Positions 1-6,151 of a DNA stretch of 23,780 nucleotides are shown here, piece after piece. Both the position numbers and the translations under genes were made by a program. Location: positions 1-23,780 of the IMG/VR virus record IMGVR_UViG_3300015207_000030, one strand, 5' to 3'. The notes beneath the pieces were generated by a model. The model worked only from the letters and a program-made list of their open reading frames with translations, ran no database searches and had not been told where the DNA came from. The DNA comes from a virus. Taxonomy: Duplodnaviria > Heunggongvirae > Uroviricota > Caudoviricetes. How positions within the stretch are numbered: position 1 is the stretch's first letter; each line of letters starts with the position of its first letter.

Positions 1-342
1 AACGGAAGCCGCTACCATATGCTTAACCTCCACGCGACATTTACAAAGGGAACGGTCGAGTTCAGACTTTTTCAATTCGATGCGCCGAGCGACGGCAAAC
101 AAAATGGGCTACACGCGGGGCAGCTCAAGAGTTACATTCAGCTTTGTCTGGCACTGAGCGCACTTGCCAAGAACGCGAAAAGCGCCTCGCCCAAGCCCCA
201 GCAGACCGAAAACCCGAAATACGCGATGAGAACATGGCTGCTCCGCCTCGGCTTTATCGGCGACGAATTCAAGACCGCGCGTGAGACTTTCACAAAGCGG
301 CTCGACGGCAACGGTTCATTCCGAGCGCGCCGAGCGGCTTAA
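1..342 (+). CDS. Amidoligase-family protein (glutamine-synthetase-like fold), C-terminal part; gene starts upstream of the window
   Basis: Frame is open from base 1 (first listed Met at 19). The motif KGTVEFRLFQFD matches the G-T-x-E-x-R signature that lies near the C-terminal end of the catalytic domain in carboxylate-amine ligases, so the gene must start upstream. Followed by an AIG2-like gene, the neighbourhood reported for this family in Firmicutes. Motif recalled from memory. Confidence 0.5.
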   Translation, partial: NGSRYHMLNLHATFTKGTVEFRLFQFDAPSDGKQNGLHAGQLKSYIQLCLALSALAKNAKSASPKPQQTENPKYAMRTWLLRLGFIGDEFKTARETFTKRLDGNGSFRARRAA

Positions 343-419: not shown

Positions 420-872
420 ATGAAAAAACTGTACTTAGCTTACGGGAGCAATCTGAACACGGAGCAAATGCGCTTCCGCTGCCCGGGTGCAAAGCCCGTC
501 GGTACGGCGGTGATACGCAATTACGAGCTGCTGTTCAAGGGCTCGCGGACGGGCGCGTACCTCACGATAGAGCCGAAGCGCGGCGGCAAAGTTCCCGTTG
601 CGGTGTGGGAGGTAAGCGCCGAGAACGAACGGGCACTCGACCGTTACGAGGGCTTCCCGGCGTTCTACTACAAAAAGGATATGAACGTCAATGTCAGGCT
701 CCCTGACGGCACGGCCGAACGCCGAGCGGCTTTCGTGTACGTTATGCACGAGGAGCGTCCGCTCGGTGTGCCGACGGGAGCATACGTCGAATGCTGCCGC
801 GAGGGCTACGGGGAATTCGGCTTTGACGAACGGTTTATTGATAATGCAATCGAAAGGAGCGTGAATGTATGA
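420..872 (+). CDS. Gamma-glutamyl cyclotransferase-like protein (AIG2/GGCT family)
   Basis: 150 aa; N-terminal LYLAYGSNL motif (YGSN signature of AIG2/GGCT), later VAVWEV and LDRYEGFPAFYYKK segments typical of the fold; RBS AAAGGTGG about 7 nt upstream of ATG 420. Confidence 0.75.
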   Translation: MKKLYLAYGSNLNTEQMRFRCPGAKPVGTAVIRNYELLFKGSRTGAYLTIEPKRGGKVPVAVWEVSAENERALDRYEGFPAFYYKKDMNVNVRLPDGTAERRAAFVYVMHEERPLGVPTGAYVECCREGYGEFGFDERFIDNAIERSVNV

Positions 873-1072
873 ATAACAAGCACAGTGAGCGGCTTGGCGT
901 TGAATTCTGCCCGAAATGCGGCAAAGCGATAAGCGGCTATCCCGCAGTCTCGCGCGTCGACGGTTCGCCGATATGCTCCGACTGCGGTACCCGCGAGGCT
1001 TTGGAGAGCATTGGAGCGTGCGCCGCAGAGCAGGACAGGATCATCGAGCTGATACACAGGAATAGCCGTTGA
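869..1072 (+). CDS. Small zinc-ribbon protein (CxxC...CxxC)
   Basis: 67 aa with CPKCG and CSDCG pairs; start overlaps the stop of the GGCT-like gene (ATGA), suggesting translational coupling. Confidence 0.55.
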   Translation: MNNKHSERLGVEFCPKCGKAISGYPAVSRVDGSPICSDCGTREALESIGACAAEQDRIIELIHRNSR

Positions 1073-1080
1073 TATTCGTT

Positions 1081-1200
1081 TTGTGCAAATCCAACAATAT
1101 CACAATCCGATATTTGTGCACGTTTTTTGCGAAAAATGTAACGAATGTAACGAATGTAACGAACGAAGTGTGCTATAATTAAAATGGCAACAGAATGACC
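1081..1200. repeat. Copy A of a ~120 bp promoter-like direct repeat (copy B at 2839..2959)
   Basis: Aligns by eye with 2839..2959 at high identity. Contains TTGTGCA twice, an imperfect inverted repeat (CAACAATATC / GATATTTGTG), three perfect tandem 9-mers ATGTAACGA (1136..1162) and an extended -10 TGcTATAAT (1171..1179). Confidence 0.75.
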
Positions 1201-1224
1201 GTTCCGAACAAACGGCGGATAAAT

Positions 1225-1260
1225 AAAGCAACGGCAGCTCATTAACTGCCGTTGCTTTGT
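1225..1260 (-). terminator. Intrinsic terminator hairpin downstream of vapC; may also stop + strand transcripts from repeat A
   Basis: Perfect stem GCAACGGCAG (1228..1237) / CTGCCGTTGC (1246..1255) with 8 nt loop; A-tract on + strand upstream gives a U-tract on the minus-strand transcript; TTTGT follows on + strand. Confidence 0.6.
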
Positions 1261-1294
1261 ATATGGCACTTCCTTTTAAGAGTTCGTCGGACGT

Positions 1295-1699
1295 TCAAAG
1301 CGTTTCAAGAAAACTGCCGGGTTTGATCGCGGGGATATCGCTTTCCTCAAAATCGCGCGTGTTTTGGGTGATGATGTATTTGCACGAATTACGCTTTGCC
1401 GTGAGCATTTGAACGGAATCCTCAAAATCCCGCGCTTTAAGCCGTGCTGCTCCCAGCGTGTCTGCGGCTTTGAGATCGACAACGTCAAATATTGCCGCCA
1501 GCTTTATCACAAGATCGTCGGTTTTGTCGGGAGTAAGCTCGCGGCGGAGAATATACACGATATTCGCAATAGACAACGCGGAAACGATACCGTTTATCTG
1601 TCTTGTCTCGCACAGCTTCCATACCTCTGCGGACTGCTCAAAGCCTTGACGGCGTGAAAGCACATCTATCAGAATGTTTGTGTCAATCAAGACCTTCAT
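1295..1699 (-). CDS. vapC: PIN-domain toxin, VapC family
   Basis: 134 aa; N-terminal MKVLIDTNILID with the conserved acidic residue, plus DFEDS and IITQNTRDF segments typical of PIN nucleases; overlaps the upstream antitoxin gene by 17 nt. Confidence 0.8.
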   Translation of the reverse strand: MKVLIDTNILIDVLSRRQGFEQSAEVWKLCETRQINGIVSALSIANIVYILRRELTPDKTDDLVIKLAAIFDVVDLKAADTLGAARLKARDFEDSVQMLTAKRNSCKYIITQNTRDFEESDIPAIKPGSFLETL

Positions 1700-1916
1700 G
1701 CCGCATTACCTTCTCCTCGCGCATTTTTTTGTAATCATAATCGTTTTTTAGAACGCCCGTCAGCTCGTCGGTCAATGATGAAACGGTCTTTTCACGCGAA
1801 ATCATTCTTGCGACCTCTTCGCCGTTTTTGGTGATCCGGATTTCTTCGTTTGACTGCACCAGCTTCAGATATTTTCCGAAGTTGTTCTGCATTTCCGTTG
1901 CGGATACTGTTAACAT
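1683..1916 (-). CDS. Phd/YefM-family antitoxin
   Basis: 77 aa; N-terminal VSATEMQNNFGKYLKLV...ITKNGEEVARMIS pattern of Phd/YefM antitoxins; GGAGG RBS (complement of 1925..1930) about 8 nt upstream of the start. Confidence 0.75.
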   Translation of the reverse strand: MLTVSATEMQNNFGKYLKLVQSNEEIRITKNGEEVARMISREKTVSSLTDELTGVLKNDYDYKKMREEKVMRHEGLD

Positions 1917-1937
1917 AATAAATTCCTCCTTTGCATA

Positions 1938-1978
1938 TTAGCTAATTATATTATAGCTTATTTTAGCTAATTTGTCAA
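1938..1978 (-). promoter_or_regulatory. Consensus sigma-A-type promoter of the phd-vapC operon with two TTAGCTAA palindromic operator candidates
   Basis: On the minus strand: TTGACA (1978..1973), 17 nt spacer, TATAAT (1955..1950), both perfect consensus. The 8 bp palindrome TTAGCTAA occurs inside the spacer (1963..1970) and just downstream of the -10 (1938..1945). Confidence 0.6.
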
Positions 1979-2172
1979 GGGGAAAGTTAAGGAAAAAATA
2001 AGCTATGCCGTATAAAGCAAAGCGCACCTGCAATTTTCCGTGCTGTCCGAAAAAGGTACTGTGACGCCCCCGCGGGGGAGACTGCGGGCTCGTCGACCCC
2101 GAATTGCACGCAGTGACAGGCGAAAAAAAGGGGTCACTTTAATTGAAAAAGGTTGAAAGGAAGGTATAGGAT

Positions 2173-2823
2173 ATGCCGGGAAAAAGGAAAGCGGCGCAAA
2201 CAAATTCATTAGGTATGCAGAGCGGCAGCGGACAGGCGATTTTCTCTCTGCAAGCCGGAACGCCTATTTTTGTCAAGACTGCCGACGTGTGCTCGGCAAC
2301 GGGCAAAACCAATCAGTGGATAGGACAGCTGACTTCACAAGGGGTTATTCACAAATGCAGAACAAACCACGGTCAGCTGTACAGTCTTTTTGATATGATG
2401 CGGGCATACTGCGCATACCTTGAAGAACGCGCGAAAAAGGACGATGAGGATATCTGCCTGCTTGAGCTGCGAAAAAAACAAGCCGAAACCAAACTGAAAG
2501 AATCCAAGGCTGCTGTCGCGGAACTTGAGGCAGCCGAGTTTCAAGGAAAAATGCACCGCTCGGAGGACGTGCGCGCAATGACCGCCGATCTGTTGTATTA
2601 CGTTCGCGGTTCGCTGCTGGCGCTCGCGGGAAGATGCGCGGCAGACTGCGCCGCGTCGGCTGATCCTGCGGAGGTACAGAAGATCATAGAACGGGAGGTT
2701 TTCGCGATACTTAAAGACCTCTCCGAATACAAGTATGACAGCAAACGTTACGACGAGCTAGTCCGCGAACGCATGAAACGCAGTTCGGACACGGAGCTTT
2801 CCGATTTTGACGATGAAGATTGA
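2173..2823 (+). CDS. Terminase small subunit, lambda Nu1-like (winged HTH)
   Basis: 216 aa; N-terminal segment (VKTADVCSATGKTNQWIGQLTSQGVI...GQLYSLFDMMRAYCAYLEERAK) parallels the lambda Nu1 N-terminus as I recall it (TIQNW..QG...LYD...Y..R); coiled-coil middle, acidic C-terminus; sits upstream of the large terminase. Confidence 0.55.
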   Translation: MPGKRKAAQTNSLGMQSGSGQAIFSLQAGTPIFVKTADVCSATGKTNQWIGQLTSQGVIHKCRTNHGQLYSLFDMMRAYCAYLEERAKKDDEDICLLELRKKQAETKLKESKAAVAELEAAEFQGKMHRSEDVRAMTADLLYYVRGSLLALAGRCAADCAASADPAEVQKIIEREVFAILKDLSEYKYDSKRYDELVRERMKRSSDTELSDFDDED

Positions 2824-2838
2824 CGGATCGGTGTTGAC

Positions 2839-2959
2839 TTGTGCAAGTTGAACAATATCGCAAAACGATATTTGTGCAGCTTTTTTCAAAAAAATGTAAC
2901 GAATGTCACGAATGTAACGAATGAAGTGTGCTATAATTAAAATGGAAACAGAATGATCT
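2839..2959. repeat. Copy B of the promoter-like direct repeat
   Basis: Same architecture as copy A: TTGTGCA x2, inverted repeat, 9-mers ATGTAACGA / ATGTCACGA / ATGTAACGA (2894..2920), extended -10 TGcTATAAT (2929..2937). Confidence 0.75.
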
Positions 2960-2991
2960 TGCGGGACAGACGGTTTCTTTTAGAATATTTG

Positions 2992-3027
2992 CGGCTTGCG
3001 GTGTAATATTGCAAGCCGTTTCCTTTG
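2992..3027 (+). terminator. Hairpin plus T-tract between repeat B and the VRR-NUC gene (possible attenuator)
   Basis: Stem CGGCTTGC (2992..2999) / GCAAGCCG (3011..3018), 11 nt loop, followed by TTTCCTTTG directly before the RBS of the next gene. Confidence 0.4.
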
Positions 3028-3042
3028 TGAGGTGAAATTGAA

Positions 3043-3414
3043 GTGCAGCAAAAACAGCATATTGAAGATACCGAGCAGATACATCTTTTTGATTGGGCGG
3101 CGATGCAGTCGGGGAAATATCCCGAATTGTCGCTGCTTTTTCATATCCCGAACGGCGGCAAGCGTGACGCACGTGAGGCGGCGCGGTTCAAAAGAATGGG
3201 CGTAAAGGCGGGCGTTCCCGATCTGTTTCTGCCCGTTCCGCGCGGGAAGTTTCACGGATTGTTTGTCGAACTGAAAGCGCCGAAAGGAAAACTTTCCGAT
3301 TATCAGAAGCAGTGGCTTCAGGAGCTTGCGGCGAGCGGCTACGCGGCTTGCGTTTGTTTCGGTTTCGACGAGGCTCGGCAGGATATTATGAAGTATCTTG
3401 AGGGGAAATTCTGA
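3043..3414 (+). CDS. VRR-NUC domain nuclease (PD-(D/E)xK superfamily)
   Basis: 123 aa from a GTG start with RBS GAGGTG; motifs HIPNGG.R, GVPDL and FVELK...GKLS..Q..W match the VRR-NUC signature as I recall it. Confidence 0.75.
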   Translation: MQQKQHIEDTEQIHLFDWAAMQSGKYPELSLLFHIPNGGKRDAREAARFKRMGVKAGVPDLFLPVPRGKFHGLFVELKAPKGKLSDYQKQWLQELAASGYAACVCFGFDEARQDIMKYLEGKF

Positions 3415-3524: not shown

Positions 3525-5441
3525 TTGCGAAACGAGACCAAGCGGCAGCGGGAGGCAAAGCTGAACGCGTGTATCACGAAAGTCTTGAACGCGATGAAGC
3601 CTCCCGAAATAAGAACAGTGGCGGAGTGGGCGGATAAGAACCGCCGTTTAACGTCGGAATCATCGGCGGAGGTAGGCAAATGGCGCACCTCGCGCACGCC
3701 GTATATGCTGGATATTCTGAACTCGTTCACCGACCCGAAGGTCGAGCACATTGTTGTGGTTGCCTCCTCGCAGGTCGGGAAATCCGAGGTTGAAAACAAT
3801 ATCGTCGGATACATTATAGATCAGGACCCCGGTCCGATATTATTTGTACAGCCGACGGTAGACGACGCGAAGAAATATTCCGAAATGCGTATCGCTCCGA
3901 TGATACGTGAAACAAAGTGCCTTAAGAAAAAGGTCGCGGACCCGAAAACGCGCGATGGCGCAAACACCAAGCGTCAGAAAGCGTTTCCGGGAGGAGTGCT
4001 CGTGCTAGCGGGTTCAAATGTTCCACATGATCTGTGTTCAATGCCTATTCGGTATCTGATCGGCGACGAGCGTGACCGTTGGGCAAAATCGGCGGGCTCG
4101 GAGGGCGATCCATGGGAACTGGCGGTCGCGCGTACAAGAACGTTTTACAACCGCAAGCTGATAGAGGTCTCCACGCCGACCGTTAAAGGAGCGTCCGCTA
4201 TTGCCAAGGCGTACAGTCTCGGTACTATGGAGCGTTGGAAAACACAATGTCAGCATTGCGGCGGGTATTCCGAGGTGCAGTTTGAAGATATCCGTTTTGA
4301 ATATGATTCCGTTGACAAAGATGAAGAGAAGATATTCGATATCAAGTCGATTTTCTATGTTTGTCCGATTTGCGGCGGCGTTTCTTTGGAGAACGAGGTG
4401 AAAAAACAGCCGTCGAAATGGGAGGCGGAAGTGCCCGAGGCAAAGGAACTGCATAAGACCCGTTCGTTCTGGCTGACGGCATGGGTCTCCCCGTGGGCAA
4501 CATGGGAGTCTATCATACTGCAATTCCTGCAAGCGGGTACGGATTCCGCAAAGCTGCAGGTAGTGTACAACACTCAATTCGGCAAGCTGTGGGAAAATCG
4601 CGGCGATATGGACAGCGAGGAGGATATGCTCGCGCGTCGCGAGGAATACGGTGCGGAGCTGCCGGACGGCGTTCTGGTGCTGACGTGCGGCGTTGATACA
4701 CAGGACGACCGCTTGGAATATGAGGTGGTGGGCTATGGACATTTTAAAGAAAAATGGGGCATAAAAAAGGGCGTCATTATGGGCAGACCCGATACAAACG
4801 AAGTGTGGGAGCGGCTTGATGATGTTATAGCTCACAAATACACATTTTCAAACGGGCTGTCGCTCGGCGTATCGTTGACGTTTGTCGATGAGGGCGGTCA
4901 TTTTACACAGGAGGTACGCAGGCGCTGCCGCGAGCGGCAAAGCAAAAACGTATTTGCGATCAAGGGCGCATCGGGCAGTCGGGATATTCCGTATACGTCC
5001 GTTCCGAAACGGCAGAAGATCGTAATAAACGGTCAGACCGTCGGTTCTGTATGGGTGTATGAGATCGGCGTTGACGCGGGCAAGCAAAAGATCTTTGACG
5101 ATCTGCGTGTGCAGACGCCCGGGGCGAATTACTGCCATTTCCCGCGCCGCGACGATTACGGTAAGGCGTTCTTCAAGTCGTATATGTCGGAACGCCTGAC
5201 ATATAACGAAAAACTCAAAAACCCGTGGCGTTGGGAAAAAATTCCCGGGCATGAGCGTAACGAGGCACTGGACTGCCGAAATTACGCAAACGCGGCATTT
5301 GCGGCACTCGATCCCGATCTTGACGCTGTCGAACATCGATTAAAAGCGATGTTAATCGGAACAACGGCAGGCGCGCCGAAAAAGAAATCCCCGAAAACAG
5401 CGAGAAGAAAGCCGACGGACACGGCATACAGCGATTGGTGA
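3525..5441 (+). CDS. terL: Terminase large subunit, lambda GpA family
   Basis: 638 aa; TTG start after RBS GGAGGTG; Walker A-like SSQVGKSE within a PYMLDILNS...LFVQPTVDDA...PMIRE block matching the lambda gpA N-terminal ATPase region; CQHCGG and CPICGG zinc-finger-like pairs. Confidence 0.85.
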   Translation: MRNETKRQREAKLNACITKVLNAMKPPEIRTVAEWADKNRRLTSESSAEVGKWRTSRTPYMLDILNSFTDPKVEHIVVVASSQVGKSEVENNIVGYIIDQDPGPILFVQPTVDDAKKYSEMRIAPMIRETKCLKKKVADPKTRDGANTKRQKAFPGGVLVLAGSNVPHDLCSMPIRYLIGDERDRWAKSAGSEGDPWELAVARTRTFYNRKLIEVSTPTVKGASAIAKAYSLGTMERWKTQCQHCGGYSEVQFEDIRFEYDSVDKDEEKIFDIKSIFYVCPICGGVSLENEVKKQPSKWEAEVPEAKELHKTRSFWLTAWVSPWATWESIILQFLQAGTDSAKLQVVYNTQFGKLWENRGDMDSEEDMLARREEYGAELPDGVLVLTCGVDTQDDRLEYEVVGYGHFKEKWGIKKGVIMGRPDTNEVWERLDDVIAHKYTFSNGLSLGVSLTFVDEGGHFTQEVRRRCRERQSKNVFAIKGASGSRDIPYTSVPKRQKIVINGQTVGSVWVYEIGVDAGKQKIFDDLRVQTPGANYCHFPRRDDYGKAFFKSYMSERLTYNEKLKNPWRWEKIPGHERNEALDCRNYANAAFAALDPDLDAVEHRLKAMLIGTTAGAPKKKSPKTARRKPTDTAYSDW

Positions 5442-5451
5442 GGTAACCGAA

Positions 5452-5709
5452 ATGATAAGTAAAAAAACCGCGCGGAAGATGTACAACTACTACACCGAGC
5501 GCATAGATCAGCTGATACAAGCGCAGACCGCATTGACGAGCGGCGGCGTTAAATCGTACACTATCGGCGACAGACAGGTCACGAAATTTGACTTGACGCG
5601 GCTGTCGCAGGAGCTTGATGATGCTGTGGAGAAACAGGCGTATTACGATGCGATACTTAAAGGCAAGCCTACGCGCGCGATCGTGGGGATCGTTCCGACG
5701 GATAAATAA
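5452..5709 (+). CDS. Head-tail joining / head completion protein, lambda gpW-like
   Basis: 85 aa directly after terL; LTSGG...YTIGDRQVT...L..L pattern resembles lambda W; position matches lambda gene order. Confidence 0.5.
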   Translation: MISKKTARKMYNYYTERIDQLIQAQTALTSGGVKSYTIGDRQVTKFDLTRLSQELDDAVEKQAYYDAILKGKPTRAIVGIVPTDK

Positions 5710-5740
5710 AACAGCGGCAGCTTTGAGGGCTGCCGCTGCT
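5710..5740. terminator. Bidirectional intrinsic terminator shared by the W-like gene (+) and hicB (-)
   Basis: Stem CAGCGGCAGC (5712..5721) / GCTGCCGCTG (5729..5738) with 7 nt loop; A-rich on the left (U-tract for the minus transcript) and T-containing on the right. Confidence 0.6.
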
Positions 5741-5743
5741 TGG

Positions 5744-6151
5744 TTAATCTTGAATGTGACATTGCTTTTTCAGACCGTCCAGAAGCACGGCTGAGAAATT
5801 CACGCCCTGTTCTTCGGCGATTGCGTTGACCCAACCGGGAATGGAGAGGGTTTTCTTTACGAAGTGCTTGTGCATTTTCTCGCGGAACGGTTTCATATAG
5901 ACTTCGATAAGCATTGGAAGCTCGTTTTTTTCAAGCTGAATATCCTTAAGCTCCGAGGGCTCAGGAATTTCCTCCTTGTCCTCCTCCATTCCGTAAAGGT
6001 GCAGCAGAAGAGCGTCTTTAGCGCTTTCGATTGCTTTTTCGGTGGTTTCCCCCGCGCTTACACAGCCGGGGAGGTCGGGGAAATATATGCCGATTGTTCC
6101 TTTATCGCCGTATTCCAACACGGCGATAAATCTGTATTTGTCGAGGTACAT
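5744..6151 (-). CDS. hicB: HicB-family antitoxin-like protein with C-terminal DNA-binding (RHH-like) tail; no HicA partner found
   Basis: 135 aa; N-terminal YRFIAVLEYGDKGTIGIYFPDLPGCVSAGETTEKAIESAKDALLLHL matches the HicB/UPF0150 signature (PDLPGC core); C-terminal KKTLSIPGWVNAIAEEQGVNFSAVLLDGLKK resembles an RHH/CopG-type segment; RBS AGGAG 6 nt upstream. Confidence 0.75.
   Translation of the reverse strand: MYLDKYRFIAVLEYGDKGTIGIYFPDLPGCVSAGETTEKAIESAKDALLLHLYGMEEDKEEIPEPSELKDIQLEKNELPMLIEVYMKPFREKMHKHFVKKTLSIPGWVNAIAEEQGVNFSAVLLDGLKKQCHIQD

Follow-up and report, generated by a model that had tools for sequence, protein, structure and literature searches.

The locus described here occupies positions 1295-1978 of a phage DNA sequence of 23,780 nt, which was analysed over its whole length and is referred to below as the window. 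Two short minus-strand genes, arranged with the antitoxin first, form an operon that is opposite to, and divergent from, the packaging genes. According to the ORF coordinates, the 3' end of the antitoxin gene and the start of the toxin gene share 17 nt, and the position of the toxin ribosome-binding site suggests that translation of the toxin may be coupled to that of the antitoxin. Thirty bases past the toxin stop codon begins a hairpin with U-rich tails on both strands (the minus-strand tail is UUUAUUUAU), whose folding, compared with shuffled sequence, gives z-scores of -3.8 (minus strand) and -4.3 (plus strand). This hairpin is predicted to end the toxin-antitoxin transcript and to oppose plus-strand transcription coming from repeat A, one of two direct repeats found in the region. 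The initial annotation had placed the pair between two promoter-like repeats and had described it as transcribed against the late genes. Both statements are correct: the pair is flanked by the two 135-nt repeats, with the small-terminase gene also lying between them, and its minus-strand orientation opposes that of the plus-strand genes for TerS, VRR-NUC and TerL. The coordinates of all these features are given in Table 1.

Table 1. Genes and candidate signals at the toxin-antitoxin locus and in its phage surroundings (window coordinates).
Feature	Position	Strand	Remarks
Amidoligase gene	19-342	+	
Gamma-glutamyl cyclotransferase gene	420-872	+	
Zinc-ribbon protein gene	869-1072	+	
Direct repeat A	1081-1215	+	135 nt
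Bidirectional intrinsic-terminator hairpin (predicted)	1219-1264	both strands	15-bp stem; between repeat A and toxin stop codon
Toxin gene	1295-1699	-	134 aa, stop codon included; PIN_3 / VapC-like PIN-domain protein (ORF list, Pfam)
Antitoxin gene	1683-1916	-	77 aa; Phd/YefM-type (ORF list, Pfam, TIGR01552)
Toxin ribosome-binding site GAGGAGAAGG	1709-1718	-	Within antitoxin coding sequence; read from sequence
Antitoxin ribosome-binding site AGGAGG	1925-1930	-	8 nt 5' of ATG at 1916
Operator site 2 (putative) ATAATTAGCTAATAT	1935-1949	-	Core TTAGCTAA at 1938-1945, over predicted start
-10 hexamer TATAAT	1950-1955	-	
Operator site 1 (putative) AATTAGCTAAAAT	1960-1972	-	Core TTAGCTAA at 1963-1970, in promoter spacer
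-35 hexamer TTGACA	1973-1978	-	
Small terminase (TerS) gene	2173-2823	+	phrog_57
Direct repeat B	2839-2973	+	135 nt
VRR-NUC nuclease gene	3043-3414	+	Between small and large terminase genes
Large terminase (TerL) gene	3525-5441	+	Lambda-GpA-type

The Phd/VapC nature of the pair, which had been proposed from the sequence at the outset, is borne out by HMM matches of both proteins, by a VapC-like model of the toxin and by the identity of the closest solved relative of the antitoxin, which is Phd of phage P1. The toxin matches the Pfam families PIN_3 (PF13470; 1.5e-19, 71.4 bits) and PIN (PF01850; 4.4e-11, 43.9 bits), in both cases above the curated cut-off (27 and 23.6, respectively). When PDB sequences were searched, the toxin profile gave no match at an E value of 0.01, and a single-sequence search produced marginal VapC matches only; hence, a comparison at the level of the fold was needed. 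An AlphaFold model built on 21 homologues (pLDDT 96.3, pTM 0.90) was used for this purpose. The top 24 Foldseek matches of the model in the PDB (TM-scores of about 0.65-0.75) were VapC, FitB or archaeal PIN proteins. The best solved matches, at 11-21% identity and TM-scores of about 0.7-0.75, are VapC-type PIN toxins, and the proteins matched include M. tuberculosis VapC26, K. pneumoniae VapC, Shigella VapC, FitB and R. felis VapC2. In the classification of Matelska et al., PIN_3 proteins are placed in the VapC group, as toxins of toxin-antitoxin systems (PMC5499597). None of the NCBIfam VapC equivalogs was matched by the toxin. The best of them, the tRNA(fMet)-specific VapC model NF047863, gave 24.3 bits (cut-off, 140), a score so low that specificity for tRNA(fMet) should not be assigned.

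The canonical VapC active site consists of four acidic residues (D7, E42, D98 and E/D119), and the presence of the conserved PIN acidic residues was a point that the initial annotation had considered decisive for the toxin. In an alignment to the VapC proteins of Shigella and the F plasmid, Asp6, Asp94 and Asp116 of the toxin align to catalytic Asp7, Asp98 and Glu119. The fourth residue, Glu42, is replaced by Asn46, which lies in the motif S-I-A-N-I-V-Y. Three of the four residues are thus in place, and the Glu42 equivalent is not; the check set in the initial annotation does not refute the toxin reading, but the toxin passes it only in part. Because Asn46 is found where VapC proteins have Glu42, and is invariant among the close relatives of the toxin (21 sequences at 50-57% identity), one might think that the PIN protein is catalytically inactive, and that the pair is a transcriptional regulator or a scaffold rather than a toxin-antitoxin system. 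A wider comparison speaks against this view. A HMMER scan of 1.8 billion cluster representatives yielded 4198 toxin relatives, of which the 141 best full-length sequences (33-50% identity) were aligned together with the query (n = 142). Position 46 is occupied by Asn in 78 sequences, by Asp in 55, by Thr in 6 and by His in 2, so the residue found there is usually of a conserved metal- or water-ligand type. Asp6 (136 sequences), Asp12 (137), Asp91 (142), Glu93 (140) and Asp94 (139) are each retained in at least 136 of the 142. Furthermore, a cognate antitoxin gene is tightly coupled to the toxin gene in every copy, as would be expected if the second protein were harmful. Altogether, we consider it quite unlikely that the protein lacks catalytic activity.

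Besides the canonical residues, the toxin clade presents an additional invariant D-x-E-D motif, and D12, D91 and E93 are near-invariant; the conserved residues of the toxin are D6, D12, D91, E93, D94 and D116. The occurrence of Asn or Asp in place of Glu, combined with the invariant D-x-E-D, in a large and uncharacterised PIN_3 clade could reflect a different catalytic centre or a different RNA target, although we consider this unlikely.

The antitoxin matches the families PhdYeFM_antitox (PF02604; 5.6e-11, 42.5 bits, curated cut-off 29.8) and phd_fam (TIGR01552; 9.2e-11, 40.9 bits, curated cut-off 20.8), in both cases over residues 1-44. With a profile made of 28 homologues, phage P1 Phd was retrieved as the best solved relative with an E value of 4e-4, and the next solved match was M. 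tuberculosis VapB5 (3dbo_A, from the VapBC5 complex; E 0.016). The C-terminal third of the antitoxin contains a conserved R-x-E-R/K motif. VapB tails are known to insert into PIN active sites (PMC5389673), and by analogy the motif would be of the kind that such tails put there. The conclusion that the cassette is a real, intact toxin-antitoxin pair of the Phd-type/PIN_3 class is well supported; as such, the pair is an ordinary one.

Upstream of the antitoxin gene, the region cccTTGACAaaTTAGCTAAaataagcTATAATataaTTAGCTAAtatgcaaAGGAGGaatttattATG contains the consensus promoter that had been pointed out in the initial annotation. The hexamers TTGACA and TATAAT are separated by 17 nt (1978..1950) and the match to the consensus is 12/12, the sole match of this quality in the 23.8-kb window; none of 100 shuffled sequences gave one. 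The octamer TTAGCTAA occurs twice in the window, with about 0.23 occurrences expected by chance, and both copies lie in this promoter. Their location also agrees with the palindromic sites described at first: the spacer contains one copy, and the predicted +1, near 1943, falls within the other. The core of site 1 starts 3 nt past the -35 hexamer, and the core of site 2 about 4 nt past the -10 hexamer. A search of the literature for TTAGCTAA found nothing relevant.

Homologous loci were then compared. Of the species representative genomes scanned, 316 contain relatives of the cassette, and most of these genomes are from gut bacteria. The same antitoxin-toxin pair was found in all 87 homologous loci fetched, always in the same order and with the same 17-nt overlap, even though their toxins are 46-57% identical to the window toxin and their antitoxins 38-69% identical to the window antitoxin. 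From these loci, 79 distinct upstream regions were extracted. The promoter score was 10/12 or higher in 75 of them, the spacer was 17 nt long in 78, and a conserved G-rich block was found where the window has the AGGAGG of the antitoxin. The spacer palindrome was detected with two mismatches at most in 64 of the 79 promoters (45 of them exact), always at offset 2, while the downstream palindrome was detected with the same tolerance in 71, at offset 4 in all of those except one. Because these offsets are fixed, the distance between the two sites is a constant 25 bp. The information content was 0.7-2.2 bits over TTAGCTAAAAT (spacer positions 8-18) and reached 2.4 bits in site 2. Within the palindrome core, G and C carry 1.4-2.4 bits, a value equal to that of the -35 and -10 hexamers, compared with about 0.1-0.5 bits at spacer positions 19-22 and at the bases upstream of -35. 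A family-wide putative operator consensus can thus be written as (A/T)(A/T)TTAGCTAAAAT, present twice, 25 bp apart, inside a near-consensus promoter.

Another explanation of this conservation would be that the TTAGCTAA motifs are promoter-strength elements, or that they reflect recent common descent, and are not repressor sites. Their location inside a promoter and the A+T-rich composition of the region are in line with such an explanation. However, the proteins have diverged, to about 50-57% identity for the toxin and 47-69% for the antitoxin, and yet the core G and C are as informative as the promoter hexamers themselves, whereas the neighbouring spacer and upstream positions carry little information; sigma-70 spacers are normally devoid of sequence conservation; and the palindrome appears twice at a fixed distance, which is the usual layout of type II antitoxin operators (PMC4803016, PMC5389673). 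We therefore regard this alternative as highly improbable. Since palindromes remain in register in loci whose toxins share so little identity, the pattern indicates selection on two palindromes of 12-14 bp rather than recent descent. The arrangement expected for autorepression, which the initial annotation had recognised in the window, appears to be a property of the whole family, with both TTAGCTAA sites in register across about 79 promoters and flanks that are not conserved. Autorepression by the antitoxin or by the complex at the two TTAGCTAA sites is thus a prediction with strong indirect support.

In some homologues (e.g. loci L041, L052, L056, L063, L065, L066 and L074), a third TTAGCTAA-like site lies directly upstream of the -35 hexamer. 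The window phage has no third site in register at that place. A candidate with two mismatches, ATAGCTTA at 2006..1999, was not counted as an operator because it is out of register with the third site of the homologues. The same region has two 9-nt segments, at window positions 1998-2006 and 1953-1961, that form a perfect inverted repeat (ATAGCTTAT / ATAAGCTAT, minus strand) and bracket the -35 hexamer and operator site 1; this repeat is not conserved in the homologous loci.

Pairs made of a PhdYeFM antitoxin and a PIN toxin, as well as regulation by heterooctamers bound to the operator, are established (PMC6504116, PMC5389673, PMC4803016), and PhdYeFM_antitox.PIN pairs are catalogued in TASmania (PMC6504116). 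The interpretation that we favour, with a probability of about 85%, is that the cassette is an autonomous type II unit, made of a Phd/YefM antitoxin and a VapC-like PIN_3 toxin, and carried as a moron by a phage of gut Firmicutes. A tentative scheme of its operation is as follows. A consensus sigma-70/sigma-A promoter would drive the antitoxin-first, two-gene operon. Antitoxin dimers would bind the two palindromes of about 14 bp that share the TTAGCTAA core and lie 25 bp apart; with site 1 bound in the spacer, beside -35, and site 2 bound over the start, RNA polymerase would be excluded. Toxin dimers would link the bound antitoxin dimers to each other and serve as co-repressor, in the manner of VapB4C4-type complexes, and the C-terminal tail of the antitoxin, with its R-x-E-R/K motif, would block the PIN active site. 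Upon loss of the cassette, or upon degradation of a labile antitoxin, the freed PIN RNase would cut an RNA and the cell would be arrested. The benefit for the phage, for which the initial annotation had suggested prophage stabilisation, abortive infection or superinfection exclusion, is the least certain step of the scheme. Prophage retention or a defence-type advantage to the lysogen seems most likely; nevertheless, to choose between prophage retention, lysogen defence and no benefit at all is speculative.

Among known systems, VapBC4, VapBC5 and VapBC46 of M. tuberculosis resemble the cassette in being antitoxin-first and in combining a Phd/YefM-type VapB with a VapC-like PIN toxin. VapB5 (3dbo_A) is one of the proteins matched by the antitoxin profile, and the best fold matches of the toxin include VapC structures from M. 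tuberculosis. Differences are, however, found. The identity of the cassette toxin to solved VapC structures is just 11-21% and its best Pfam model is PIN_3, not PIN; it has Asn at the Glu42 position and the invariant D-x-E-D; and it is found in gut Firmicutes, with a phage as carrier. The Phd-Doc module of P1 is also phage-borne, and Phd is the closest solved relative of the N-terminal domain of the antitoxin. In Phd-Doc and YefM-YoeB, two palindromic sites overlap the promoter, as do the putative operators of the cassette. Unlike in those systems, one site of the cassette lies in the spacer and the other over +1, and the place of Doc or YoeB is taken by a predicted PIN RNase. The two palindromes of yefM-yoeB have a 6-bp core and are 12 bp apart, centre to centre (PMC4803016), whereas the core in the cassette is T-AGCT-A, not TGTACA, and the distance is 25 bp.

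In the model described for VapB4C4, two DNA-binding antitoxin dimers, each on one palindromic half-operator, are bridged by toxin dimers (PMC5389673). This heterooctamer model, shared by C. crescentus VapBC1, R. felis VapBC2 and N. gonorrhoeae FitAB, fits the two-site layout of the cassette. The fold matches of the toxin include FitB and R. felis VapC2, and the antitoxin, like many VapB proteins, carries an Arg-containing motif at its C-terminus. A difference is that the antitoxins of the VapB4C4-like systems use AbrB or RHH DNA-binding domains, while that of the cassette is of the Phd/YefM type. In this framework, the Asn/Asp variant of the active site and the conservation of the operators are useful details, not surprises, and current concepts are left unchanged. 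As an example of an uncharacterised Phd-PIN_3 toxin-antitoxin family, the cassette is clean and amenable to experiments, and the operator consensus of the family predicts the exact bases to mutate for binding and repression.

Concerning the phage that carries the cassette, its TerL is 55-59% identical to the TerL proteins of Roseburia phage Shimadzu and Faecalibacterium phages Lagaffe and Taranis, and head and contractile-tail genes are found downstream of the TerL gene. Most of the 28 related phages fetched from IMG/VR keep the order amidoligase, cyclotransferase, zinc ribbon, variable slot, TerS and TerL, and the Phd-PIN pair is present in none of the 28. Two relatives were inspected closely: the slot contains a plus-strand ORF of 123 aa in one (L101) and an ORF of 79 aa in the other (L104). 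Similarity between the window and related phages ends near 1016-1047 and restarts at about 2050, and the G+C content of the cassette is 0.44-0.49, compared with 0.53 in the window and 0.52-0.58 in its neighbours. Its absence from syntenic relatives, the possession of its own promoter and terminator, and its lower G+C content thus indicate that the cassette is a moron-type insertion. A comparison can be made with lambda bor, a phage moron whose cargo is a lipoprotein. Like bor, the cassette is a small unit that has its own promoter and terminator, runs against the late genes, is flanked by the late region on one side and by the packaging genes or cos on the other, and is missing from close relatives; the cargo is, however, a toxin-antitoxin pair. 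For phage biology, it represents one more moron of the defence or addiction type beside the packaging genes.

The trio of genes for amidoligase, gamma-glutamyl cyclotransferase and zinc-ribbon protein is kept 5' of the packaging genes in most related phages found. In some relatives (L102-type), the VRR-NUC gene is absent from its position between TerS and TerL.

Among 116 proteins that neighbour the chromosomal copies, 171 Pfam families were counted, none of them in more than 3. Such heterogeneity means that the unit formed by promoter, operator, antitoxin and toxin is self-contained and autonomous. Plasmids harbour distant relatives only (33-38% identity), annotated as PIN protein and Phd-family antitoxin, and GenBank phages are almost free of the family, with a single weak match (32% identical). 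At least 21 contigs, each of them from this phage, encode the exact toxin protein. A DNA comparison of 10 contigs showed the cassette to be intact and the same in every one, which leaves no polymorphism for analysis. A separate element (L098-L100) carries a pseudogenised copy, located at 6762-7637 in L098 and at 2337-3212 in L100 and adjoining a transposase of the rve family. This copy shows 84% DNA identity to window positions 1928..1014, which comprise the genes, the terminator and repeat A. It lacks the promoter, its antitoxin gene has a frameshift and a stop codon, and its toxin gene has two stop codons. Hence, the cassette can evidently be lost.

The rarity of the toxin family on phages (7 IMG/VR contigs and the weak GenBank match) and the existence of a decayed copy raise the possibility that the cassette is a dispensable, selfish hitch-hiker without an adaptive role for the phage, housed in a variable slot beside the packaging genes and kept there by addiction or drift. 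The finding of the same cassette in unrelated chromosomal contexts and the existence of 28 syntenic relatives that do without it are consistent with this possibility. It is less easily reconciled with the persistence of identical, intact copies of the cassette in ten contigs and of the exact toxin on at least 21, or with the retention of a perfect promoter, both putative operators and the terminator. On balance, we view a selfish hitch-hiker as possible, but less likely than not. The question concerns the role of the cassette, not its molecular mechanism, and this view therefore overlaps with the autonomous toxin-antitoxin unit that we favour. Neither an integrase nor a repressor was seen in the approximately 34 kb examined of a 62-kb contig.

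The direct repeats A and B, which are 85% identical, have a common architecture. Each contains three tandem GTAACGAAT units and an extended -10 element, TGnTATAAT, without a -35 hexamer; a shared leader of about 45 nt follows, and then a terminator hairpin of its own (the one at 1219-1264 for repeat A, and another at 2991-3019 for repeat B). In the related phage L101, only an element of the B type is found, with the same architecture, at 5696-5796, between TerS and VRR-NUC. Judging from these traits, the repeats look like late promoters, either activator-dependent or of an antitermination type, or like small-RNA genes. No Rfam family and no tRNA gene was detected over the whole window; hence, the intergenic elements are not known RNAs.

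The cassette is convergent with repeat A, that is, with a late-promoter-like element followed by a terminator. It had been suggested in the initial annotation that late read-through from repeat A could silence the pair. In that form, the proposal finds no support, since the strong bidirectional terminator comes first; silencing by antisense transcription would need antitermination. In turn, no strong promoter was found between the cassette and TerS, so late TerS transcripts may have to cross the cassette. Antisense silencing by read-through from repeat A may thus be described as plausible but unsupported.

A non-coding, G+C-rich element is located at 2050-2128, just 5' of TerS, and contains the palindrome CCCCCGCGGGGG at 2067-2078. 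Its conservation among related phages is about 76% (L101, 4896-4973; L104, 4469-4565). One contig (L127) starts with GGGCGGTGACGCCC, 319 nt before its TerS gene. The element may be a cos site and, if this is the case, the toxin-antitoxin promoter would lie about 90 bp from one end of the virion DNA. One could then imagine that the cassette is wired into the life cycle of the phage and not merely parked there. If the virion is of the lambda type, the cassette would be at the leading end of the incoming chromosome and would fire unrepressed on infection, while antiterminated transcription from repeat A towards TerS would run antisense to the cassette and switch it off. We consider such wiring unlikely.

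The late region contains a second gene on the opposite strand, which encodes a HicB-like protein of 135 aa (5744-6151, minus strand; phrog_497, 6e-39). No HicA partner was found in the 69 nt upstream of this gene. When PADLOC was used, the only similarity detected was a weak one between the N-terminal part of the PIN protein and PDC-M11A (E 0.001), with no match for either the antitoxin or the HicB-like protein; hence, the cassette does not correspond to a catalogued defence system. The HicB-like gene has a head-tail adaptor-like gene on one side and the portal gene on the other.
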